In this document: positions 11,400-42,270 of the stretch, one piece after another
Position numbering within the stretch: position 1 is the stretch's first letter
Layout: each line of letters opens with the position of its first letter
DNA from: Candidatus Woesearchaeota archaeon
GTDB lineage: Archaea; Nanobdellota; Nanobdellia; SCGC-AAA011-G17; JACPIM01
DNA: 47,628 nucleotides
NCBI GenBank assembly: GCA_016185635.1
Contig: JACPNF010000010.1
Span: forward strand, 1-47,628
Direction: 5' to 3'
Made by a program: the position numbers and the translations under genes
The notes under the pieces: model-generated
Told to the model about the DNA's origin: nothing
Databases searched by the model: none
What the model saw: the letters and a program-made list of their open reading frames with translations, nothing else

Positions 11400-14300
11400 A
11401 TAATTGATGTACATGAGCAGGTAGAAAAATTCAAGGATTTTTTAGACCAGAATTACAGGGAAAAAATAAATGAAATACTGTTAAAAGGAAAAAACTTTAT
11501 TTTGATTGATTTTTCTGACTTGCTAAAATTTGACCCTGAACTAGCTGACCAGATGCTTGATGATCCTGAGGAAAGCATCAAGGCTTTTGAATTATCCCTA
11601 GGAAATTTCGGAGTTGAAGGAATTTTAAGAGCAAGGTTCTTTAACCTGCCAGAAAGCCAGAAAATAAAAATAAAAGACATAAGGAGCGAGCATCTTGGGA
11701 AATTTTTGTATTTAGAGGGAATTGTCAGGCAGTCATCTGATGTAAGGCCTCAAGTTGTCAAAGCAAGGTTTGAATGCCCTTCATGCGGCAATGTTATTTC
11801 TATCCTGCAGGTTGATATTAAATTTAAAGAGCCGAGCAGATGCACATGCGGAAAAAGAGGAAAATTTAGATTGCTTGACAAAGAATTAGTTGATGCCCAG
11901 AGAATAATTATCGAAGAAAGCCCTGATAGTTTGGAGGGAGGAGAACAGCCAAAGAGATTGAGCATTTTTCTTAAAGAGGATTTAGTTGAACCTATTATGG
12001 AGAAAAAAACAACTCCTGGAAGCAAAGTAAGAGTAATAGGTGCTATAAAAGAAGTTCCTATTCCCTTGAAGAGCGGAGCACCAAGCACAAAATATGACTT
12101 AATGATGGAATCTAATTTTATTGAACCTTTAGAAGAAACTTTTGAAGAACTAGAAGTAAATAAAGAAGAAGAAAAAAAGATAATTGAATTAAGCAAAAAT
12201 CCTAAGGTTTATGAGAAATTTATTAACAGCATAGCCCCATCTATTTACGGACATTCTGATATTAAAGAAGCATTAGTTTTGCAATTAATGGGGGGAGTTA
12301 GAAAGGAAAGGAAGGATGGAACTTGGAACAGGGGGGATATCCATATTTTACTTGTAGGCGATCCTGGTTCAAGCAAATCAACATTATTATCATTTATTTC
12401 TAAAGTGGCTCCAAAAGCCAGATATGTTTCTGGCAAATCAGCTTCAGCAGCTGGTTTGACCGGAACAATTGTCAAAGATGAATTCTTGAAGGGGTGGGCT
12501 TTAGAAGGGGGAGCTTTAGCTCTTGCCAATGGGGGATTTGTGTGCTTACATCCAGATACAAGAGTAATTATTAACAATTCAATTAAGCCTATTAAAGACG
12601 TTTTTTGTGAGGATATTAAGAAAATAGGATATTTAAACGCAGAAAAAATAGAATCAAATCAAATTGAAAATTCTATAGAGAGTTTTAATGTAGATAAATT
12701 ACAAATTTCCAGGCAAACTACAAACTCCATTAGCAGGAAATTATACAAAGGAAAGCTTGTGCATTTAAAATTTAAATCTGGATTTGAAATAAAATTAACA
12801 CCCAATCATAAAATTATAGATGGCAATAATTTTGAATGGAAAGAAAGCCAATATTTCTCAAAAAATGATTTTGTTTTAGCACCGCTAAAGTTGTCTTCAC
12901 ATAACTCACAAGCATACTTCTTAGACATAATGCCTGAAAATTGGAAGATAGGGCTTGAAAAAGAAGATAAAGAATTTTTGAAAGAAGAATTAATCTTGAG
13001 ATTGGGTTCTCTTAAGGAGATTTACAAAAAGTTCAATATTGATAGGGATTATTTATCTGGCGGCAAACAGTTACAAATAAAAACTTTTAAGGAAATTTTA
13101 AATTTTTTAGGCATTTATGATGAATGGAAACATAAAACTTTTAGGTTTATAAGAAACAAAAATGGGGAAAAACTAAAAATAAATTCTTTTACTCCGGAGC
13201 TTTGTTATATACTAGGTTTTATTAGTGGTGATGGATATGTTAAATCAGCAGCCAGAAGAACAGTAGTTAATATAATTCAATCTATCAAGCATGAAGCATA
13301 TATAAACAAATTAGAAGAATGTTGGAATACTGTTTTTCAAAATAATGTACATAAATCCAAGCCCTTCCATTATACAAGTTCAATTAACGGCAAAATAGTT
13401 GAAAGTGATGCTATAACCTTAAGTCACTCAAGCAATCTTTTAGGCCAGTTATACTTTTACTTAAGGTATAATAATTTTGGAAATTTATTAACCTTATCAG
13501 ATGCATCCTTAAAAGCTTTTTTTGCAGGAGTAATTGATAGTGATGGCTGTATTTCTGATAAACATTCTGTTAAAAAAGGAAGAAATTATGTTGTAAAGCA
13601 TATTGATATTTTTTTGAGTAATAACACAATGGATAATCAAAATATTAGTTTAGCTTTGAGAAGATTTGATTGTTATTCCAAATTGATAAACCTAAAAAAT
13701 ATACAGTCTGTACAATTGACAGGAAGGGAAGATGTAAATACCTTTATTTTTAGTATTATGAAATATTCTGTAAAAGCACAAAATTCCATTTTAGTGCCTA
13801 TTAAAACAAGAATTTCGAGTATAAGCAACAAATTACCAAAGGGAATAGTTGCTAAATTATGTGAAAATATCTCTAGCATAAATAAATCAATTTTAGTTAA
13901 GAAAGGAATTTGGAGTACAATATACAATGCTAAAAAAATAAATCAACAACCATCCAGAACAAATTTGCTTTCAATAAAAGAAAAATTATCTGATTTTTTG
14001 TCCTTAGATAATCTAAATTTAATAAACAAGTTGCTTCAAAGGGATTTCTTTTTAGATCAAATAATTGAGATTAAAGAAGAAGATTATGAAGGTTATGTCT
14101 ATGATTTATATGTTCCCAAGTTACATAATTTTTTGGCTGGGGGAATTATTGTTCATAATTGTCTAGATGAACTCGACAAAATGGATGAAAATGATACAAG
14201 TGCATTGCATGAAGGACTTGAACAGCAGCAAATCAGTTTTAGCAAGGCAAACATTCAAGCAACATTATTAACAAGAGTAAGCGCTTTGGCAGCAGCAAAT

Positions 14301-15029
14301 CCAAAGTTAGGGAGGTTTGATCCTTACCAGCCAATTGCAGCACAAATCAATTTGCCGCCTGCGCTGATTAATAGGTTTGATTTAATATTTCCTATGAGGG
14401 ACATACCTAGCGAGGAATTAGACACAAAAATTGCATCTCATATCCTTGAAATGCATGGGAATAAAGATGAAATAGAACCAGAAATTAATGCCAAGCTTAT
14501 GAGAAAGTACATTTCTTATACTAAGAAAAAGATTTTTCCACAATTAACTGAAGGAGCAAAGGATGAAATAAGAAATTTCTATGTCAGCTTAAGAAACACT
14601 GGCGGGAGCAAGGATGATGTGAAACCAATTCCTATAAGCGCAAGGCAGCTTGAGGCATTGATAAGACTGAGCGAGGCATCTGCCAAGATAAGATTGAGCG
14701 AGAAAATTACAAAAGAAGATTCAAGAAGGGCCATAAGAGTATTGACAAAATGCTTACATGATGTAGGACTTGATCCTGAAACTGGAAAGATTGACATAGA
14801 CAGGATAGCAACAGGAATAAGCACTGCACAGAGAAGCAAAATAATTACTGTCAGGGAACTTATAAATGATTTTGACAAGAATGGAGTCAAGACAATTCCT
14901 ATAAATGATCTTATAAAAGCATGTGTTGAAAATGGACTTGAAGAATCAAAGGCTGAAGAAATTTTAGAAAAAATGACACGAGAAGGTGAAGTATTCCAGC
15001 CAAAAGTAGGATTTATCAGCAAGATTTAA
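11400..15029 (+). CDS. mcm: MCM replicative helicase, interrupted by one intein; start codon uncertain
   Basis: Zn finger CPSCG...CTCG, Walker A GDPGSSKS, Walker B CLDELDKM, arginine-finger region SRFDLIF-like (NRFDLIFPM), C-terminal wHTH. The track start (TTG 11502) truncates a conserved N-terminal helix that reads in frame from about 11400. Confidence 0.9.
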   Translation: MIDVHEQVEKFKDFLDQNYREKINEILLKGKNFILIDFSDLLKFDPELADQMLDDPEESIKAFELSLGNFGVEGILRARFFNLPESQKIKIKDIRSEHLGKFLYLEGIVRQSSDVRPQVVKARFECPSCGNVISILQVDIKFKEPSRCTCGKRGKFRLLDKELVDAQRIIIEESPDSLEGGEQPKRLSIFLKEDLVEPIMEKKTTPGSKVRVIGAIKEVPIPLKSGAPSTKYDLMMESNFIEPLEETFEELEVNKEEEKKIIELSKNPKVYEKFINSIAPSIYGHSDIKEALVLQLMGGVRKERKDGTWNRGDIHILLVGDPGSSKSTLLSFISKVAPKARYVSGKSASAAGLTGTIVKDEFLKGWALEGGALALANGGFVCLHPDTRVIINNSIKPIKDVFCEDIKKIGYLNAEKIESNQIENSIESFNVDKLQISRQTTNSISRKLYKGKLVHLKFKSGFEIKLTPNHKIIDGNNFEWKESQYFSKNDFVLAPLKLSSHNSQAYFLDIMPENWKIGLEKEDKEFLKEELILRLGSLKEIYKKFNIDRDYLSGGKQLQIKTFKEILNFLGIYDEWKHKTFRFIRNKNGEKLKINSFTPELCYILGFISGDGYVKSAARRTVVNIIQSIKHEAYINKLEECWNTVFQNNVHKSKPFHYTSSINGKIVESDAITLSHSSNLLGQLYFYLRYNNFGNLLTLSDASLKAFFAGVIDSDGCISDKHSVKKGRNYVVKHIDIFLSNNTMDNQNISLALRRFDCYSKLINLKNIQSVQLTGREDVNTFIFSIMKYSVKAQNSILVPIKTRISSISNKLPKGIVAKLCENISSINKSILVKKGIWSTIYNAKKINQQPSRTNLLSIKEKLSDFLSLDNLNLINKLLQRDFFLDQIIEIKEEDYEGYVYDLYVPKLHNFLAGGIIVHNCLDELDKMDENDTSALHEGLEQQQISFSKANIQATLLTRVSALAAANPKLGRFDPYQPIAAQINLPPALINRFDLIFPMRDIPSEELDTKIASHILEMHGNKDEIEPEINAKLMRKYISYTKKKIFPQLTEGAKDEIRNFYVSLRNTGGSKDDVKPIPISARQLEALIRLSEASAKIRLSEKITKEDSRRAIRVLTKCLHDVGLDPETGKIDIDRIATGISTAQRSKIITVRELINDFDKNGVKTIPINDLIKACVENGLEESKAEEILEKMTREGEVFQPKVGFISKI
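12543..14159 (+). mobile_element. MCM intein (539 aa) with LAGLIDADG homing endonuclease domain
   Basis: Starts CLHPDTRVI (block A). TPNH (block B). LAGLIDADG motifs LGFISGDGYV and FAGVIDSDGCI. Ends GGIIVHN, followed by +1 Cys. Removing it restores GGFV|CLDELDKM. Confidence 0.9.
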
Positions 15030-32248: not shown

Positions 32249-33430
32249 ATGACAAAAAAAGAGAATAAACTCCAAAAAACCTACAAATTCAGATTATATC
32301 CAAATAAAAGCCAGGGATTTAAATTATTAGAAACTTTAGAACTTTGCAGACAAACTTACAATATCCTGCTAAGTGAATTAAATAACCAAAAAGTAATAGA
32401 CAAGTCAATAATTCAGGGAACAATTCCAGATATTAAAATATGCGAACCTAAATTCAAGAGATTATATTCAAAAACAATGCAGTATGAAAGTTACAGATTG
32501 TTTAGTAATTTACACACTTTAGTACAATTAAAGAAAAAAGGAAAAAAAGTAGGTTCATTAAGGTTTAAATCAAAAAAGTCATTTAAGTCAATAACTTACA
32601 ACCAGTCTGGCTTCAATTTAATAAAAACAGGAAAAAGGTATCAGACTTTGCATTTATCTAAGATAGGAGAAATTCCGGTAAGAGCTTATAGAGATATAGA
32701 AGGAAAAATAAAACAAATAGCAATCAAGATAACTAATTCAGGAAAATGGTTTGCCAACATAACAGCTGAATCTGGAAAACAAAATAAAAAGTTAGTCAAT
32801 AGCAAGCAGGTAGGAATAGATCTGGGCTTGACAAATTATGTCTATGACAGTGATAATAATCACTTTGACAATCCTAAATATCTAAACAATTCATTAAATA
32901 AACTAAAAAAACTGCAGAGAAAATTATCAAGAAAGCAGAAAGGAAGTAATAACAGGAACAAGCAAAGATTAAAAGTGACTAAACTGCATGAAACAATAGA
33001 AAACCAAAGAAATGATTTTCTCCATAAATTAAGCAGGTACTACATTAACAATTATAATTTGATAGCAGTAGAAAACCTGCAAATACAAAACATGATCAAA
33101 AATAGATTTTTATCAAGGTCAATTTCAGATTCATCATGGGCTAAATTTATTAAAATGCTTGAATACAAGGCTGAAAGCGCTGGTATCCAAGTAATAAAAG
33201 TAAATCCAAGAGGAACAACACAAAAATGCAGCAATTGTAATACAATAGTTAAAAAAAGTTTGAAAGACAGGGAGCATATATGCCCTTGTGGTTTGCATAT
33301 TCATAGAGACTACAATTCAGCTTTAAAAGTATTAAAAGATGCTACCGTAGGAAGTACGGGAAGTAACGTCTGGGGAAATGTTTCAGCAGAAACGTCAATG
33401 AACCAGAAATTCCAAGGCATTAATACTTAG
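32249..33430 (+). CDS. tnpB: TnpB (OrfB) RNA-guided endonuclease-type transposon protein
   Basis: KTYKFRLYPNKSQ N-terminus. RuvC residues in VGIDLGL, IAVENLQ and HRDYNSALKV. Zn finger CSNCN...CPCG. Confidence 0.85.
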   Translation: MTKKENKLQKTYKFRLYPNKSQGFKLLETLELCRQTYNILLSELNNQKVIDKSIIQGTIPDIKICEPKFKRLYSKTMQYESYRLFSNLHTLVQLKKKGKKVGSLRFKSKKSFKSITYNQSGFNLIKTGKRYQTLHLSKIGEIPVRAYRDIEGKIKQIAIKITNSGKWFANITAESGKQNKKLVNSKQVGIDLGLTNYVYDSDNNHFDNPKYLNNSLNKLKKLQRKLSRKQKGSNNRNKQRLKVTKLHETIENQRNDFLHKLSRYYINNYNLIAVENLQIQNMIKNRFLSRSISDSSWAKFIKMLEYKAESAGIQVIKVNPRGTTQKCSNCNTIVKKSLKDREHICPCGLHIHRDYNSALKVLKDATVGSTGSNVWGNVSAETSMNQKFQGINT

Positions 33431-34551: not shown

Positions 34552-37500
34552 ATGGAAGCCAAATTAAAAGTCATGGAAGCCTTGCAGGAAGAGGCTTACA
34601 AAGGAATAGTTAGAGTAGACAGCCAGACAATGAGGCAAATTGATGTAAAGCCTGGCAGTGTTGTAGAAATTGAAGGTGGGAGAATTACTGTTGGTATTGT
34701 TGACAGAGCATATCCTACTGATATTGGTCAGGGAATTATCAGAATGGATGGTTTAGTAAGAAGAAATGCAAAGACTGGAATTGGAGAAGTTGTAAAGGTA
34801 AGAAAATCTGACATAAAAGAAGCAAAAACAATTTCAATTGCTCCTGCACAAAAAGGGGTCATGATACAAGCTGATCCTGATGTTTTCAGAAAAGGGTTAT
34901 TGGGAAGAGCTGTTGTAAAAGGAGATATTGTTGCATTAGGCGGAACAAGAACAAGAAGAAGGACAATGGCAGGAAGCCCATTTGAGGATATTTTTGATGT
35001 TTTTGAACAAGGTTTTATGGGAAACTTTGGTTTTGGAGGGTTAAGATTTATTGTTGTTGATGCAAATCCTAAACAGCCTGTTATAATTACTGAGACAACA
35101 GAAATAAAAGTTAATCCAAAAGCTGTTGAAGTTTCTGAAGAGTTGGCTCCTGATGTAACTTATGAGGATATAGGTGGGCTAAGCGATGAGATTAAAAAAA
35201 TAAGAGAAATGGTAGAATTGCCTTTGAAGCATCCTGAGATTTTTGAAAGGCTTGGAATTGAGGCCCCTAAAGGGGTATTGCTTCATGGAGTTCCTGGAAC
35301 TGGAAAAACTTTGCTTGCGAAGGCTGTAGCAAATGAAACTGAAGCTAACTTTTTACTTATTAATGGGCCAGAGGTAACTTGTTTAACTGGAGATACTGAA
35401 GTTTTAACAAACCCTAATGGAAGAGTAAAGGTACAAGAATTATTTAATGAAACAGAAAAAAACGGGGACATAGTAAGAAAAGATGACTTCAAAGAAATTG
35501 TAATTCCTAAACAAAAAATAAAACTGTTTTCTTTAAATGAAGATTTAAAGATTGTTCCAGATGAGATTGAAGCAATTACAAAATCTTATGCTCCTGAAAT
35601 TTATGAAATAAAAACAAAGAAAAAAGGATTACATAAAACTTCAAGAAATCATCCCTTTGCAACATTAAGCGAAGAAGGAAAAATTATTTGGAAAACTGCA
35701 AAAGAACTAAAAAGAAGGGATAAAATAGTTGTAGCTCCGAAATTAAATTTAATTAATAAGGATTCTTATTCAGAAAAGGATTTAGCTCAGATAGAACTTG
35801 AAGAAGATGAAATAGAAAAAATTGAAAAAAAAGAAGGACAAACAGTTTATGATATCTCTATGAAAACTTATCATAACTTTTTTGCAGGTTCTCCTTTAAC
35901 CTTATTGAGCAATTCTAAATTTTACGGTGAATGTGTTACAGAGGATACTGAAGTATTTACAAATCCAAAAGGCCCAAAAAAAATTAAAGAAATAAATGAA
36001 GGAGATAAAGTTTTTGTTTTGGATGAAAAAACAAAGCATTTTACAAAGTCCATAGTTAAATCCAAAATATTTAGTGGTGATAAAAAAGTCTATAAACTAG
36101 AAGCTGGAGGGAAAGAAATTGAAGCTTCGGATAATCACCCATTTTTAAAGTTGAAAGAAGATAACTCAACTGGCTGGCTGCCTTTGGGGGAATTAAAGAT
36201 TGGGGATTCTGTTTGTGTTGCTCAAGACGTCCCAATAAATAATATAAATAATAAAGTACCTAAATTAAATTTTGCCAGAATAAACAAAATAGAATTTACA
36301 GGAATTAAACCAACTTATGATATTGAAATAGAAGATCATCATAATTTTATTGCTAATGGGTTTATAGTTCATAATTCTGAAAAAAGAATCAGGGAGATTT
36401 TTGAAGAAGCTGAGAAGAATGCGCCAAGCATTATTTTTATAGATGAGATAGATGCTATTGCCCCTAAGAGAGAAGAAACATATGGTGAAGTTGAGAGAAG
36501 AATGGTCGCGCAGTTGTTATGTTTAGATAAAGATACTAAGGTTTATTTGCCAGACAAGTTTGTAAAAATTAAGGATTTATTTGATAATACTAACGGAGAA
36601 GAATTTAAGGATGAATTTGGGGTTCTACATAAAATCCCAGAAAAAGACATTTTAGTTCAGGGTCTTGACAAAGATGGGAAATTAACAAATTCAAGAATTA
36701 TTTCTTTAACTAAAACCAATATTCCAGAAGCTTATAAAATAAAATTAGATAATGGGGGATTTTTAAAAACTTCAAAAATAACAAAATTTTTAGTAGTTAA
36801 TAATGATGGAATAAACTGGATTACTGCAAATGAATTAAAAGAAGGGCAATATGTTCTTGTACCAAAGAAGATAGATTTTGACAGCAAAATACATAAAATA
36901 GATTTATTTAGGTTAAATAATAAGAATAAATGGGTATTGAAATTACCTAAAGATGGCCTTTTGAATAAGTTATTTAACAGAAATTATGCTTTTTTGAACG
37001 AGGTATATGATTTACTAAAAAATAAAAAGATTGAAAATAAAAATAATACTTTAAGAATTTCTATATTAAATCTACTATTAGAAAAAAAAGAATGTACAAA
37101 AAAAGAATTGCAGGATTTACTTGGTATAAGCAGAAAAAGTTTGAATAATGCTTTAAGAGTTATTGAAAAAGATTTAATTTCAGTTTTTGAAGATTACTCA
37201 AAAGTAAAATTAAATATTAATATTAATAATTCTTTAATTAAAGAGGTAAATCAAATAGCTTTTAAGAGTGATTCAATAATTTACCCAATAAAAGAAAAAT
37301 ATTTTACTTACATACCTAAAGTATTAGATGAAAAATTTGCCAAATTTTTAGGTTTATTAATAACTGACGGGCATATACATTATGATTATGTAAATGTAAG
37401 CGGAGAAACAGCCTTTATTGCTCAAAATAACCTTAATGATGTAATTAATATAAAAAGTAGAACAAGTAAATTAAGAGGCCTTGATAGACTGGACATTTAT

Positions 37501-40500
37501 TCTACAGCTTTAGCGCAATTTATTAGTGATTATTTTAAGATACCTCAAGGAAAGAAAAGCAAAATAGTAAGGATTCCTGAAGAGATATTTAGCTCAGCTT
37601 TACCTGTTAGGGCAGCTTTTGTAGCCGGTCTTATGGAAGGCGATGGGGGAGCTAGCGAGAAAATATCTATTGGTAGTACAAGCAAGGCTTTGATCGAGGA
37701 CACAGTAAAATTATTATTATCATTAGGTATCTTATCATATCATAAAAAATATGATAATACAAATCATGTAATTGTACATGGTGGTTATGATTCTGCTTAC
37801 AGATTTTTTTCACTTATCTATCCATATATGGAACTTGAAAGAAAAAAAGAAGATATTCAGAATTTAACAAACAAAATAAGAAGAGTATCTACAATTTCTT
37901 ATCCGATAAAAGAAAGGCTTTATGGTATAAGAAAAGAAAACAATATAAGATTAAATGATAATATGTACAGGTATTTATCTCCAAATACTAATTACTGCGT
38001 TAATTCTAAGGTGTTAGGATATTTTATTCAACAGATAGGTAGCATAGAAAATGAATTTGTACAGGAAATACAGAGATTATATAATTCTGATTTAATTCCC
38101 TGTAGGATTAAAAGTATAGAAAAAGTAGAAAATAAAGAACCGATGTATGACTTAACAACAACTAATTCAAACTTCCTTGCAGGAGAGATTCCTGTTTTGG
38201 TTCACAATACCACAATGGATGGATTAAAATCAAGAGGAAAAGTAGTAGTAATCGGGGCAAGTGTTACTGGTGATACTCCAATTATGATAAAAGATGAAAA
38301 TGGAATTAAAATCTTGCCAATAGGGAAATTTATAGATAAATATTATAAAGAAGGTGAAGAAAATGTTGAAAAAAATGTCGATAATATTTACGCTTTGGGA
38401 TTTGATAAAAAAGAAATAAATAACACATTTAATCAGACTTATTTTAATAACAGTGCTTTCAAAAAAATTAGAAGTGTATTTAGACATAAAGTAAATGAAA
38501 TTTATGAAGTAGAATATGTTGGTGGAAAAATAAGAACAACAGGTAATCATTCTGTTTTTGTTAGGACTAAACAAGGGCTCAAATATAAGCCAGTTACATT
38601 ATTAAAACCAGGAGAAATTTTAGTTGACTTACCTTATAAAGTAAATTCTCATATTCAAAAAATACATGAATTCCCTATGAGTTTAAGTTTAGAATTGCCA
38701 GTTCATAATATTCCATTAATAGAAAAATGTTATGACCAAGCTCTTCATGGAGTAAGTACAAATTTAATCTCAATTGAATCTAACAAACATAGCTCAACTA
38801 TTAATAGATGGAAAAGGGAGGAATATATTCCAGAAGAATTATCAAATAATTATTGGCATCTCCTTCCAAGCACAATAAAAGCTGCACCAGAACTAATGAG
38901 ATTATTAGGTTATTATACTGCAGAAGGTTATGCAAGAGACGAAGTAGACTTTTGTTTTGGAACACATGAAAAGGAATTAATTAAAGATTTAATAAAAATT
39001 ATGAAAAAAATATTTAATGTAGAACCTTCAAATGTAAAAATTACTGGCTCAAGGACTAATATTATATATAATATTAAACCATTAGCGAATTTCTTTAGCA
39101 GACATTGTGGAAAAGGAGCTTATAATAAACATCTTCCTTCGTTTATTTTTGAAGCTCCAAGAGAATATTTCTTGGAATTTGTAAATGGTTATTTTGCCGG
39201 TGATGGTTATAAATTTAATGATGGAAAATTACAAGTTACTTCAGTAAGCGAACAAATTATAATCGAATTAAATTGGCTTTTGAGGATGCATGGTATAAAA
39301 AGTCATCTTTCCAAAACAATAGCTAAAGCAGGAAGAAAAATAGGAAACAATACTATATGTAAAGATTCGATTGGATATAGGGTTAATATACCAAAAACAG
39401 CAAACCCTTTTGTTCAAAATAAAGTATTAAATGCAAAGAGAGCGAGAATAAAGTCAATTACAAAATTGCCTTTCAATGATTACGTATATGATTTATGCGG
39501 TTGCGACAATGAAGCTTTTTTCGGAGGTAAAACACCTATTTTGTTACATAATACAAATCGTGTTAATTCTTTAGACCCTGCATTAAGGAGACCTGGAAGA
39601 TTTGACAGGGAAATTGAAATTAGAGTTCCGGACAAACATGGAAGATTAAACATTTTAAAAATACATACAAGAAGCATGCCTCTAACAAAAGATGTTGACT
39701 TAGAAAAACTTGCTGCAATAACTCATGGTTTTGTCGGCGCCGACTTAGCAGCATTATGCAAAGAGGCAGCCATGAATATTATAAGAAAAATACTGCCTGA
39801 ATTAAACATAAAAGAAAATGAGCCATTGCCAAAAGAAATTTTAGATAAACTAAGAATAACAGGAAATGATTTCAAGGAAGCATTAAAGGTTGTAAGACCA
39901 AGTGCAATGAGAGAAGTGCTAGTTGAAGCTCCCAATGTCAAATGGAAAGATATAGGCGGATTAGAAGATTTAAAACAAGATTTAAAAGAAGCTGTTGAAT
40001 GGCCTTTAAAATATCCAACTGCTTTTACAAAATTAGGAATAAAGCCTCCAAAAGGAATTTTAATGTACGGTCCGCCTGGTTCTGGAAAGACATTGCTTGC
40101 AAAGGCTGTTGCAAATGAAAGTGAAGCAAATTTTATCTCAATAAAAGGGCCTGAACTTATAAGCCATTGGATGGGAGATTCTTTGCCTTATGATGAAAAA
40201 ATAATAGTTAAAAAAAACGGCAAAGTTAAATTTATGAAGATAGGGGATATAGTTGAAAACAAAGAAAATGTCCAGGTACTATCATTTGATAAAGAAAAAA
40301 GAGTAAGGTTTACCAACTTAAGGGACCATATAAAACATCCCTTAAGAGGCAAACTACTTGAAGTGACTACAAGAACTGGAAGAAAAATCAAGGTTACAGA
40401 TTATCATTCTTTATTTTCTTTTTTAAATGGCAAGTTTACAGATGTTCCTGTGAGCCATTTGATCCCTAATGAGAGTTATATAGCCATACCTAGAAATCTG

Positions 40501-42270
40501 AACTTACCTAGAGAAACTTTAGATTCAATAAATCTTTACGATTATTTCAAAGAAGATCAGGATGTTTTTGTTAGCAATGTTAAAGATTACTTAACAAGAG
40601 CAAAACTAATCTTAAGTTTAAACAAAACAGCAAATATTTTAGGAATTTCAAAAAAATATTTGGCAGATATTATAGGCAAAGATTTACCAGTTTCTATAAC
40701 CAAATTTGACAAATTAATAAAAGAAGCTAAATTAGCATTGAAATTTGAAGAAATAAAAATTAAATTAAAAGGAAGCATACATGAATATAACTCCATATTT
40801 GCGGTAAACAAAGACTTTTGGAGATTAGTCGGATTATGGGTGGCTGAAGGAGATTTAAATGGTTATACAGTAAGGTTACATAATCAAAATAAAGAAATCA
40901 GAGAAGACATGCATAAGATTTGCCAAGATTTGGGATTTAAAATTTCTTCTAGTGAAAACTCATTTGCAATTTGTTCTTTATTTTTGCAGAAAATATTCAA
41001 GAAGGTTCTTAATTTAGAAACAGGAGCTGAAAACAAAAAAATACCAGAAATACTATTTACTTTAGATAAAGAAAGCAAAGCTAATTTTTTGAAAGGATAT
41101 TTTAGCGGTGATGGAAGCAACTACCCTGCCGCAAGGGGCAAATTTCAAATAGAGGCCAGCACTATAAGCGACGAATTAGCAAATGGTTTGCTGTATTTAC
41201 TGTTAGATTTTGGCATAGTAGCAACAAGATATGATAAAAAAGAAAGAACTGGAAGTATATCAAAAAGAATAAGCATTCTTGGAGTAAAGAATTTTGAAAA
41301 ATTCAAGGATGCAGGGTTTATAGATAAAAAAAGAAATGATAGAATAGGGCAGTATATTAAATCAAGAAAATGGTTCAGGTCTGATTTAATACCTCTTACT
41401 GGCGAACTTTATAATTTAGTTACAGAAAATAATTCATCCTATGATGAGAGTATAAATACAGTCTGCAAAGAGAAACTAAAACAAATTTTAATTTATGTTG
41501 ATAAAGACAAAAGCTTGTATAAGGACTATTGGGATTTAGTTGACGGAGATATTTTCTTTGATAGAGTCAAAGAAATTAAGGAGTTGCCTAGCGAAGATTA
41601 TGTTTATGACATTTCAGTTCCAGGAGAAGAAAATTTTGTTGCAGGCTTTGGCGGTGTTTTAGCCCATAACAGCGAAAAGGGAATTCGCAAGGTTTTTGAG
41701 AGAGCAAGACAAGCTGCACCTTCAATAATCTTTTTTGACGAGATAGATGCAATTGCAAGCGCAAGAGGGATGGACATAGGAAACAAAGTTACGGAGAGAA
41801 TGGTTAACCAATTATTAACTGAAATGGACGGACTTGAAGAATTAACAGATGTGGTAGTTATAGGAAGTACGAATCGTCCTGATCTTCTTGACCCTGCCTT
41901 GCTAAGACCTGGAAGATTTGACAGGATTATATCAACTAACATACCTGAAATGCAGTCAAGAGAAAAAATATTTGAAATTCATACAAAAGAAATGCCTTTA
42001 GCAAAAGATGTTGACATTAAAAAACTTGTAGACCAGACAGTTGGATTTGTGGGCGCTGACATTGAGGGCTTGTGCAGGGAAGCAGGATTATTGGCATTAA
42101 GAGAAGACATAAAAACAACTGAAGTAAAGATGAAGCATTTTGAGCAGGCTCTTGAAAAGATCAAGCCATCTATCACCCCAGAGCAGTCAAAGAAGTATAA
42201 AGAAATAGAAGAGACTTACTTAAGAAGAGCAAAGGCTGGAATAGAAAGATCACCGAGCTATTTGGGTTAA
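34552..42270 (+). CDS. cdc48: CDC48/VCP-type double-ring AAA+ ATPase interrupted by five inteins
   Basis: N-domain. D1: [29 protein letters not shown]2: [28 protein letters not shown]. Joined exteins total 755 aa and read as a contiguous CDC48. Confidence 0.95.
35380..35913 (+). mobile_element. CDC48 intein 1: mini-intein (178 aa), Cys1, ends ...LLSN, +1 Ser
   Basis: CLTGDTEVL (block A), TSRNHPF (block B), [15 protein letters not shown] (block F/G-like). Flanks GPEVT | SKFYGE. Confidence 0.8.
35932..36375 (+). mobile_element. CDC48 intein 2: mini-intein (148 aa), Cys1, ends IVHN, +1 Ser
   Basis: [37 protein letters not shown]. Flanks SKFYGE | SEKRIREIF. Confidence 0.9.
36520..38208 (+). mobile_element. 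CDC48 intein 3: large intein (563 aa) with LAGLIDADG endonuclease and an HTH-like insert
   Basis: [19 protein letters not shown] and [33 protein letters not shown], +1 Thr. Flanks AQLL | TTMDGL. Confidence 0.85.
38260..39552 (+). mobile_element. CDC48 intein 4: large intein (431 aa), Ser1, LAGLIDADG endonuclease
   Basis: [28 protein letters not shown] and [34 protein letters not shown], +1 Thr. Flanks VVIGA | [18 protein letters not shown]. Confidence 0.85.
40180..41670 (+). mobile_element. CDC48 intein 5 (D2 domain): large intein (497 aa), Ser1, LAGLIDADG endonuclease
   Basis: [29 protein letters not shown] and [33 protein letters not shown], +1 Ser. Flanks SHWMGD | SEKGIRKVF. Confidence 0.85.

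Follow-up and report, generated by a model that had tools for sequence, protein, structure and literature searches.

The region at positions 35380-36375 of the window, which is the whole 47,628-nucleotide stretch of Candidatus Woesearchaeota archaeon DNA analyzed here, comprises two complete class 1 mini-inteins. They occupy two recurrently used sites of a DPANN-type CDC48/VAT gene, and they are probably independent elements that arrived there separately and would splice autonomously by the canonical pathway. The first element (intein 1, at site a) ends at position 35913 and the second (intein 2, at site b) starts at 35932, exactly as in the first-pass annotation, which had described two mini-inteins separated by six extein residues. 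This description was borne out by all the lines of evidence presented below.

The host gene is one unbroken open reading frame of 2572 codons on the plus strand (34552..42270), encoding the precursor of a CDC48/VAT-type double-ring AAA+ unfoldase with five inteins. Pfam matches along this frame include CDC48_N, CDC48_2, two AAA domains, AAA_lid_3, five Intein_splicing stretches and three LAGLIDADG_3 domains. Without its five inteins, the protein has 755 amino acids, and its residues 5-738 align to Thermoplasma VAT (5g4f, E 3.5e-240), with not a single indel across both junctions in the 22-residue segment that surrounds them. Its architecture is that of CDC48/VAT/p97 type II AAA+ proteins: an N domain (double-psi barrel and beta-clam) precedes two AAA+ modules, whose pore loops are F-Y-G in D1 and W-M-G in D2. 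Homologues bear the names Woesearchaeota, Pacearchaeota and Nanoarchaeia.

The N-extein (34552..35379, plus strand) covers the N domain and ATPase domain 1 up to and including Walker A and strand beta2 (...GVPGTGKT...LLINGPEVT), and ends with Thr276, the -1 residue of intein 1. Downstream of intein 2 lies a 48-codon extein (36376..36519, plus strand), which holds Walker B and opens with Ser609 (TCT, 36376-78), the first residue of SEKRIR and the +1 nucleophile of intein 2. Three LAGLIDADG inteins follow on the same strand. Intein 3 at site c (36520..38208) has 563 amino acids, with Cys1, a terminal His-Asn and Thr+1. Intein 4 at site d (38260..39552; 431 amino acids, Ser1, His-Asn, Thr+1) shares 87% identity with its site-d counterpart in the homologue P0018. 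Intein 5 (40180..41670; 497 amino acids, Ser1, His-Asn, Ser+1) occupies site b' of domain 2, directly after the domain-2 pore loop (HWMGD), where its position is paralogous to the intein 2 site. Thus, of the four further inteins counted earlier, three are located in the host frame, while the fourth resides in an MCM gene (12543-14159).

Between inteins 1 and 2, the sole host sequence is the hexapeptide SKFYGE (35914..35931, plus strand; TCT AAA TTT TAC GGT GAA; residues 455-460 of the frame). It aligns to S262-K-Y264-Y265-G-Q267 of VAT, i.e., to pore loop 1 of NBD1 with its aromatic Phe-Tyr-Gly, so that, in ATPase domain 1, site a immediately precedes pore loop 1 and site b immediately follows it. 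The earlier placement of this 18-nucleotide extein in the segment just after the Walker A helix was therefore imprecise. Both Tyr264 and Tyr265 of VAT are essential pore-loop-1 residues of NBD1 (PMC5423775). In the protein under study, Ser455, the first residue of the loop, is the +1 nucleophile of intein 1, and Glu460, the last one, is the -1 residue of intein 2.

Intein 1 (35380..35913, plus strand) consists of 178 amino acids (residues 277-454 of the frame), running from CLTGDTEV to LTLLSN with Ser following. It matches the Pfam Intein_splicing profile (PF14890) over positions 4-148 of 155 with 55.2 bits (E 9.6e-15), the curated cutoff being 35.8 bits. Its key residues are Cys1 (35380-82), Ser88 and His91 of block B (35641-43 and 35650-52, within S88-R-N-H91), Asp158 of block F (35851-53) and the C-terminal pair Ser177-Asn178 (35908-13); Asp158 and Asn178 are invariant in the alignment of the site-a family. 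The AlphaFold (AF2) model (pLDDT 95.3) displays a full HINT fold with only a short linker between blocks B and F, and it resembles the TvoVMA, PabCDC21-1, Mvu TFIIB and Pho RadA mini-inteins with TM scores of 0.81-0.84. The three closest relatives are the site-a inteins of P0017 (93% identity), P0019 (79%) and P0018 (77%). The P0019 intein is 503 amino acids long and carries a LAGLIDADG_3 domain, which lies where intein 1 has its residues ~123-135. By parsimony, intein 1 would be a member of the site-a family that has been inherited in its clade, as an endonuclease-deleted form of this longer relative.

Intein 2 (35932..36375, plus strand) is a mini-intein of 148 amino acids (residues 461-608 of the frame), which runs from CVTEDTEV to GFIVHN and is also followed by Ser. 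Its Intein_splicing match reaches 66.1 bits (E 4.1e-18; profile positions 10-155 of 155). Cys1 is encoded at 35932-34, Ser66 and His69 of block B at 36127-29 and 36136-38 (S66-D-N-H69), Asp130 of block F, within a YDIEIE motif, at 36319-21, and the terminal His147-Asn148 at 36370-75. The AF2 model (pLDDT 96.2) again presents a full HINT fold with just a short linker between blocks B and F, and it superimposes on the NpuDnaB mini-intein with TM scores of 0.86/0.90 and an rmsd of 1.7 A. Sequence affinities lead away from the other inteins of CDC48 site b, to which identity is at most 34%, and toward SufB inteins (48-54%). The nearest relative is a mini-intein of the same length at site b' of domain 2 in P0018, from a sister lineage (70% at the amino acid level and 76.6% at the nucleotide level). 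When metagenomes were scanned with intein 2 aligned to this relative, the scan recovered only domain-2 copies (L005 and L006) and SufB inteins, and no second genome with an intein of this type at site b of domain 1.

Both elements can be assigned to class 1, since each of them extends a HINT fold over its whole length and combines Cys1, Ser+1, an S-x-x-H block B, a block F Asp and a terminal Asn. The catalytic positions are conserved in the family alignments of both. Each interrupts a conserved host motif in frame and is missing, with exact boundaries, from orthologues, and at 178 and 148 amino acids each qualifies as a mini-intein. As the first-pass annotation had stated, neither of them contains an endonuclease: there is no LAGLIDADG or HNH Pfam match in either and no such domain between blocks B and F. 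Its reading of the block motifs requires partial correction. Each intein indeed has its own Cys1 and terminal Asn, but both have Ser in place of Thr at B:7, so that block B reads SRNH and SDNH instead of T-x-x-H; moreover, intein 1 ends with Ser-Asn, not with His-Asn. Autocatalytic excision and extein ligation draw indirect support from the intact frame, the conserved catalytic residues and the dN/dS ratios given below.

The short spacing is all that speaks for the opposite picture, already named in the first-pass annotation, of one large intein with an internal insertion, where SKFYGE would be a chance look-alike of host sequence. This composite element is refuted by the evidence for two complete Hint domains. 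Pfam gives two separate, near full-length matches; the HINT fold is complete twice over, and so is the set of splice-junction residues; orthologues carry one half or the other by itself, with the boundaries unchanged; and SKFYGE is exactly the host pore loop that the alignment with VAT demands. The two separate inteins are not products of a duplication either, as they are only ~31% identical to each other. By its sequence relationships, intein 2 appears to represent a lineage different from that of intein 1. It probably came separately and later, an order that rests on parsimony applied to four taxa and a neighbor-joining (NJ) tree.

The C-terminus of intein 1 deserves separate attention. A penultimate His (G:6) normally helps Asn cyclization and is common among inteins, although it is not obligatory. 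Intein 1 has Ser at this position, as do the inteins of P0017, P0018 and P0019, whereas the other 46 of the 50 site-a inteins end with His-Asn. Its C-terminal step could consequently be slow or context-dependent. The Ser at G:6 also prompted consideration of a class 2 (KlbA-type) assignment, which was ruled out by Cys1 and Ser+1; class 2 inteins have Ala at position 1, and their Cys+1 attacks directly (PMC4031507).

The missing His, together with the heavy load of five inteins in one protein, might also be taken to mean that one or both mini-inteins are splicing-dead relics and that the gene is a decaying copy rather than a working CDC48, especially if a second, intein-free CDC48 elsewhere in the genome relaxed the selection. 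Such decay is quite improbable. The frame of 2572 codons is intact, and the nucleophiles and the residues of blocks B, F and G are all present. The dN/dS ratio equals 0.09-0.15 for intein 1 and 0.17-0.18 for intein 2 (0.09-0.18 for the pair), which points to purifying selection on both, and 0.04-0.07 for the host extein. Furthermore, in the syntenic relative L002, the CDC48 gene of its contig occupies this very locus.

Homologues demonstrate that the two sites are used independently and repeatedly. P0007, P0017, P0018 and P0019 contain only an intein of the intein 1 type, after which SKFYGE runs directly into the following host residues, with no intein at site b. For example, P0007 reads ...LLSN-SKFYGE-SEKRIREIF, and the C-terminal side of the loop is likewise unbroken in P0017. 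Conversely, P0021, P0033, P0036, P0061 and others have an intein at site b alone. In VAT and many homologues there is neither, and a continuous stretch of 11 residues is followed by (E/Q)-SE. While alleles with single occupancy are common, both sites are filled in 12 other DPANN protein clusters (P0022, P0031, P0053, P0055, P0057, P0059, P0060, P0064, P0065, P0066, P0069 and P0071). These doubles appear at no fewer than five separate places on the extein NJ tree, with single-occupancy sisters. In P0053, P0060 and P0071, LAGLIDADG domains are present in both neighboring inteins, and P0023 has the same six-residue sandwich around the domain-2 pore loop. The combination of two mini-inteins with a SufB-like intein with Cys1 at site b was found only in the contig under study. 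A scan of GTDB species representatives with the 332-amino-acid region returned only two distant, irrelevant loci.

Occupancy counts for sites a and b (13 proteins with both, 32 with a only, 16 with b only and 12 with neither; odds ratio 0.30, p 0.026) come from a phylogenetically non-independent sample that was chosen for long, multi-intein proteins. This statistic was rejected as a sign of interference between the sites because of that bias and non-independence.

The distribution of single and double alleles also bears on the order of splicing. In the primary precursor, the near extein of each intein consists of six residues and then the other intein, and splice-site reactions are known to respond to flanking extein residues (PMC4031507). 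It is conceivable that one intein has to leave first to give the other its native extein context, or that the pair folds as a unit; for instance, intein 2 might have to be excised first and so present a folded C-extein to intein 1, whose penultimate residue is Ser instead of a helpful His. Ordered or cooperative splicing of this kind is rather unlikely, though it deserves more weight than the other alternatives weighed in this work. The Ser-Asn end is not an adaptation to the neighbor, because P0017, P0018 and P0019 share it and have no site-b intein. Both intein families stand alone in many orthologues, where they presumably function, and the sandwich arose repeatedly from unrelated intein pairs, which argues against a specially co-adapted pair.

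Under the preferred model of autonomous splicing, each HINT domain would fold by itself after translation and pass through four canonical steps, namely, an N-S acyl shift at Cys1, transesterification onto the hydroxyl of Ser+1, cyclization of the terminal Asn and an O-N shift. Excision of intein 1 would join Thr276 to Ser455, and that of intein 2 would join Glu460 to Ser609, with no obligatory order. Both excisions, together with removal of the three other inteins, would restore the 22-residue segment and the unfoldase of 755 amino acids. The precursor would be inactive, because domain 1 would be unable to form its beta2/pore-loop/alpha2 core before both inteins leave.

The proposed history relies on sites a and b being separate homing targets in very conserved DNA, which would make two invasions 18 bp apart possible. 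With one site filled, 18 bp of the flank of the other would still be intact. LAGLIDADG enzymes recognize ~14-40 bp (PMC8966425), and since the spacing falls within this range, the recognition sites of the site-a and site-b families probably overlap. Doubly occupied alleles derive chiefly from invasion of singly occupied ones (PMC10643990). The lineage of intein 2 would otherwise reside in SufB genes and, as the same 148-amino-acid mini-intein, at the paralogous domain-2 site of the sister lineage.

This kinship with a domain-2 copy, along with the immediate flanks common to the domain-1 and domain-2 sites (GGN GAA before and TCT GAA AAA after the insertion point), could also result from a chimera of metagenome assembly, in which similar flanks led to the wrong joining of a domain-2 mini-intein to domain 1. 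Such an artifact is very improbable. Both flanks of intein 2 are of the domain-1 type, with SKFYGE upstream and the 18 residues downstream; the domain-2 site of the same frame is filled by a different intein with domain-2 flanks; at the DNA level, intein 2 is 23% different from the domain-2 copies known, which rules out its co-assembly from them; and the a+b architecture recurs in 12 independent clusters from several sources.

Signs of movement between the two pore loops are subtler. The +1 Ser codon beside the mini-intein of the intein 2 type is TCT at both paralogous sites, and AGC or AGT at four empty or differently occupied sites. The SKFYGE codons differ from those of P0017 and P0018 at 4-5 of 18 nucleotides, while P0017 and P0018 differ from each other at 1 of 18. 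In 8-codon sliding windows, flank divergence reaches only the 83rd-88th percentile, and segment-wise identities are not outliers; the flank signals of co-conversion are not statistically significant and hence suggestive only. A tentative reading, to which we would give somewhat less than an even chance, is that the six-residue sandwich is a recurrent state of both DPANN CDC48 pore loops, with overlapping homing targets on either side, and that a site-b mini-intein of SufB ancestry moved between the D1 site (here) and the D2 site (P0018/L005). As it lacks its own nuclease, its route would have been gene conversion or mobilization in trans, with the break supplied by a neighboring LAGLIDADG intein such as that at site c, 144 bp away. 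If true, nature would offer an example of a mini-intein that hitch-hikes on its neighbor, which is listed as an open question by Turgeman-Grott et al. (PMC10643990).

The closest kin of intein 2 outside its mini-intein pair are LAGLIDADG inteins of SufB/SufD from Nanoarchaeota and relatives, for which the identity of 48-54% refers to the N-terminal splicing region. They share with intein 2 the ending ...HNFIANG(L/F)IVHN followed by S, but they reside in an unrelated host gene, keep LAGLIDADG and have ~390-400 amino acids, unlike the 148-amino-acid mini-intein of CDC48. Nothing is new about inteins or mini-inteins as such, about proteins with several of them, or about ATPase motifs as hot spots of insertion. 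In engineered SICLOPPS and twin-intein vectors (IC-peptide-IN), C- and N-terminal splice junctions only ~5-8 residues apart both react, which indicates that such short spacing is chemically feasible. However, these constructs are artificial, consisting of the halves of one split intein or of two unrelated engineered inteins, and they yield cyclic or cleaved peptides; no loop is stitched into a host protein, in contrast to what is proposed for the CDC48 pair.

Several natural systems resemble parts of this arrangement. CDC21 (MCM) of Pyrococcus abyssi, likewise an archaeal AAA+ protein, also has two endonuclease-less mini-inteins within its ATPase core, and few structures match intein 1 better than PabCDC21-1 (TM 0.77-0.81). 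The CDC21 inteins are 48 host residues apart (PMC8966425), whereas only six separate the CDC48 pair, and these form one functional loop. In Haloferax mediterranei, the inteins MCM-a and MCM-d likewise home independently and sit at conserved sites close to each other in an AAA+ motor, with one of these sites lining the substrate channel, and experiments revealed that these neighbors interfere during co-homing (Turgeman-Grott et al. 2023, PMC10643990). Single- and double-occupancy alleles coexist among relatives in Haloferax MCM, as in CDC48. Nevertheless, both Haloferax inteins have active endonucleases, while both members of the present pair are mini-inteins, and the host is CDC48/VAT rather than MCM. 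For DnaB, a hexameric ATPase, the distinct insertion sites a and c lie just two residues apart within a conserved motif (Novikova et al. 2016, PMC4760082), yet this spacing is measured across different DnaB genes, and no mention of a protein with both of them filled was found, whereas the CDC48 sites are filled at once, repeatedly. In the literature search, the nearest published neighboring inteins were 48 and 85 residues apart (PMC8966425), CDC48 inteins received a passing mention only, and no tandem inteins were found, which is not proof that the arrangement is undescribed.

The unusual point is the geometry, in which facing splice junctions are split by one six-residue functional loop. Protein engineers may care about two orthogonal natural mini-inteins that flank a six-residue cassette. 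Beyond that, the recurrence of this arrangement in at least 12 DPANN CDC48 clusters, some of them with two intact LAGLIDADG domains, makes these genes a natural test bed for the questions of how much native extein an intein needs, whether neighbors help or hinder one another in splicing and homing, and by which route inteins devoid of an endonuclease reach new sites.

The two inteins lie within a single open reading frame of 2572 codons (34552-42270, forward strand), which encodes a double AAA+ ATPase of the CDC48/VAT type and in which Pfam detects five Intein_splicing stretches along with three LAGLIDADG domains. Translation places intein 1 (178 aa, CLTGDTEV...LTLLSN) at 35380-35913, the extein SKFYGE at 35914-35931, and intein 2 (148 aa, CVTEDTEV...GFIVHN, followed by SEKRIREIF) at 35932-36375, exactly as in the first-pass annotation. 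Intein 3 (36520-38208, 563 aa), intein 4 (38260-39552, 431 aa) and intein 5 (40180-41670, 497 aa) follow on the same strand. Without its five inteins, the host protein has 755 aa, and this spliced sequence aligns over residues 5-738 with VAT of Thermoplasma acidophilum (5g4f; E 3.5e-240); the 22 residues compared at the spliced region contain no indel. Counted along this alignment, SKFYGE corresponds to VAT S262-Q267, which contains Tyr264 and Tyr265, the essential, conserved pore-loop-1 residues of NBD1 (PMC5423775). This correspondence identifies the six-residue extein as the substrate-gripping pore loop of domain 1, a more specific location than the imprecise "just after the Walker A helix" proposed earlier. 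Intein 5 occupies the paralogous position, directly after the domain-2 pore loop (HWMGD/S..., the slash marking the splice junction).

When scanned alone, each intein gave a nearly full-length match to Pfam Intein_splicing (55.2 bits, E 9.6e-15 for intein 1; 66.1 bits, E 4.1e-18 for intein 2; cutoff 35.8 bits), and neither gave a Pfam match to an endonuclease domain in these separate scans. AlphaFold2 models, built from alignments of natural homologues, were confident (pLDDT 95.3 and 96.2, respectively). Foldseek matched the intein 1 model to TvoVMA, PabCDC21-1, Mvu TFIIB and Pho RadA at TM 0.81-0.84, and the intein 2 model to NpuDnaB at TM 0.86/0.90 (rmsd 1.7 A); by predicted fold, both fall among the solved mini-inteins. 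Inteins 1 and 2 share Cys1 and a Ser at C-extein position +1, and carry, respectively, S88-x-x-H91 and S66-x-x-H69 in block B, Asp158 and Asp130 in block F, and Ser177-Asn178 and His147-Asn148 at the C-terminus. The sole deviation at a catalytic position is the Ser-Asn end of intein 1, common to this intein and its three closest relatives and absent from 46 of the 50 inteins at the same site. Assignment of intein 1 to the KlbA-type class 2 was rejected because its position 1 is Cys (class features per PMC4031507). Taken individually, both are ordinary class 1 mini-inteins. Pairwise comparison, suggested in the first-pass annotation, gave about 31% identity between the two and no more than 36% for any two of the window's six inteins (splicing domain), values which rule out a recent duplication. 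The sixth intein (12543-14159, 539 aa) is located in an MCM helicase ORF (11502-15029, forward strand), at the Walker B region (...LANGGFV/CLHPDTRV...GGIIVHN/CLDELDKM) with Cys at +1, and is presumably one of the "other four" mentioned in that annotation.

With the complete precursor as query, about 75 CDC48 homologues bearing inteins were retrieved, with Woesearchaeota, Pacearchaeota, Aenigmatarchaeota, Diapherotrites or Nanoarchaeia as named sources. Insertions were placed on the spliced reference by an alignment scoring long insertions cheaply, which revealed ten recurrent sites: the P-loop, a (before the pore loop, intein 1), b (after it, intein 2), c and d in domain 1, and a', b', P', the Walker B site and d' in domain 2. 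Site a alone is filled in the homologues P0007, P0017, P0018, P0019 and about 30 others, P0007 reading ...LLSN/SKFYGE/SEKRIREIF..., while site b alone is filled in P0021, P0033, P0034, P0036, P0061 and others. Both are occupied in P0022, P0031, P0053, P0055, P0057, P0059, P0060, P0064, P0065, P0066, P0069 and P0071, every time six residues apart, with SKFYGE, SKFYGQ, SKYYGQ, SKWYGQ, SKWYGE or SRWYGG in between; in P0053, P0060 and P0071, the two inteins each include a LAGLIDADG domain. P0023 has a six-residue sandwich at the domain-2 pore loop (...PLLLHN/SMWVGK/SLPYTE...), flanked by inteins of 465 and 495 aa. In a neighbour-joining tree of spliced exteins, double alleles appear in at least five separate places with single-occupancy sisters adjacent; therefore, double occupancy is a recurrent outcome and no one-off. 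The existence of a-only and b-only homologues also refutes a single intein containing an insertion. Together with the separate Pfam matches, the HINT models and the complete catalytic residues, this confirms the original observation of two complete, endonuclease-less inteins around SKFYGE and supports its interpretation, with corrections. Another protein with closely spaced inteins may be P0163 (692 aa), with Intein_splicing at 137-288 and another Hint match at 343-449 (Pfam).

Intein 1 shares 93%, 77% and 79% identity with its counterparts at site a in P0017, P0018 and P0019, the three closest hosts, and the P0017 contig (L002) is syntenic with the window. In the 503-aa intein of P0019, a LAGLIDADG domain sits where intein 1 shows an alignment gap of roughly 12 residues. 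These relationships indicate that intein 1 is a vertically inherited derivative which has probably lost its endonuclease. Its dS (0.44 against P0017, 0.90 against P0018) is lower than that of the adjoining N-extein (0.86 and 1.57), a hint that the intein was exchanged more recently than the host gene or that saturation or codon bias produces an artefact. Most members of the intein 1 family (site-a/a' inteins of P0022-P0088) have Gln for the block B His (S-x-N-Q-P), with a rough regex count of at least 32/50 at site a and 12/13 at site a'; the His is present in the clade of intein 1. His B:10 ranks as the best conserved of all intein residues in a 2014 review, which knew just two inteins without it (PMC4031507).

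Site b, that of intein 2, is unoccupied in P0017, P0018 and P0019. Intein 2 is matched best by a mini-intein of 148 aa at site b' of P0018 (70% aa, 76.6% nt); the two are colinear from end to end, and the same copy is present on a second contig, L005. The next relatives are SufB/SufD LAGLIDADG inteins (48-54% identity), a kinship also recovered by exhaustive HMMER searching of 1.84 billion representatives. Identity to other CDC48 site-b inteins, mostly with Ser at position 1 and some lacking the block B His, does not exceed 34%, and of the inteins mapped to site b (33) and to site b' (28), only intein 2 and the P0018 copy are minis. Their synonymous divergence (dS about 1.06) does not exceed that between the host genes (about 1.6), by a noisy estimate. 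Both are flanked by GGN GAA / TCT GAA AAA, and the same Ser codon is AGC or AGT at empty or differently occupied sites, which is compatible with a short co-conversion tract carried by the intein; the co-conversion signal at these flanks was not significant in sliding-window and segment tests. A second site-b lineage with Cys1 (P0033, P0034, P0061, P0141) has T-P-T-S in block B, lacks His B:10 and has an identity to intein 2 of only about 34%. Thus, site b is used by at least three unrelated lineages: Ser1 LAGLIDADG, Cys1 T-P-T-S and SufB-like mini.

Two invasions 18 bp apart can be envisaged if a and b act as distinct targets for two different intein families; the equivalents of both are in use in domain 2 as well. 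Since the recognition length of LAGLIDADG enzymes is 14-40 bp (PMC8966425), insertion at either site would keep 18 bp of the other's flank and probably remove the distal part, a loss that the endonucleases would have to tolerate. As neither intein of the pair has a nuclease, the arrival of intein 2 would require an ancestor that still had an endonuclease, simple recombination or help from the nuclease of a neighbouring intein. The co-existence of singly and doubly occupied alleles matches Haloferax MCM, where double alleles arose mainly by invasion of singly occupied ones (PMC10643990). At site c (36517-36522 and 38209-38211, compared with L001 and L002), the +1 residue of intein 3 is Thr (ACC) in the window and Ala (GCT/GCA) in the intein-free P0007, P0017 and P0018; because Ala cannot serve as the splice nucleophile, invading such alleles would need codon co-conversion, in parallel with Pro/Ser at MCM-d (PMC10643990). 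The site-b' flanks (40156-40179, 41671-41694) differ from those of P0018 (contig L001) by 12 nt per eight-codon side, several amino-acid changes included, both values being in the 99th percentile of the gene. The occupants are a Ser1 LAGLIDADG intein in the window and a mini-intein in P0018, and the divergence points to extended co-conversion tracts or to co-adaptation of intein and extein. Additionally, a TnpB/IS605 OrfB-type ORF (32249-33430, forward strand; OrfB_IS605, Cas12f1-like TNB, HTH) lies between a RadB-like gene and CDC48; L002 has different small ORFs there, so this is probably a lineage-specific insertion.

The dN/dS values of intein 1 (0.09-0.15) and intein 2 (0.17-0.18), with 0.04-0.07 for the N-extein, point to maintenance of both splicing domains, which would be expected of a host protein dependent on their excision. 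The anatomy and conservation of both inteins are directly visible, and the class 1 pathway (PMC4031507) provides the probable chemistry. Each HINT domain would fold by itself; splicing would start with an N-S shift at Cys1 and proceed through transesterification to Ser+1 and cyclisation of Asn to an O-N shift. In this way, intein 1 would join Thr276 to Ser455, and intein 2 Glu460 to Ser609; whichever left first, the remaining one would gain native exteins on either side. Autonomous splicing, in either order, is most likely because each family works alone in many orthologues, the sandwich arose repeatedly from unrelated pairs, and the Ser-Asn end of intein 1 is older than the arrival of intein 2. 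Splicing in a set order, or with cooperation between the two, is a less likely but live alternative.

The splicing chemistry of this pair is nothing new. Its spacing of six residues compares with 48 between the two mini-inteins of Pyrococcus abyssi CDC21 and 85 between the two inteins of Thermococcus kodakarensis polymerase (PMC8966425), and the haloarchaeal MCM-a/MCM-d pair is among the closest cases described (PMC10643990). For DnaB, a spacing of two residues is stated between sites a and c (PMC4760082), which concerns the sites and not their co-occupancy. Within the literature searched, of incomplete coverage, no description was found of CDC48 pore-loop inteins, apart from a brief reference to an Anaeramoeba CDC48 intein, or of co-occupied sites as close as six residues. 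With the CDC48 pair, nature offers an extreme and recurrent example of neighbouring inteins, in which questions of extein context, neighbour interference and mini-intein mobility can be tested directly.
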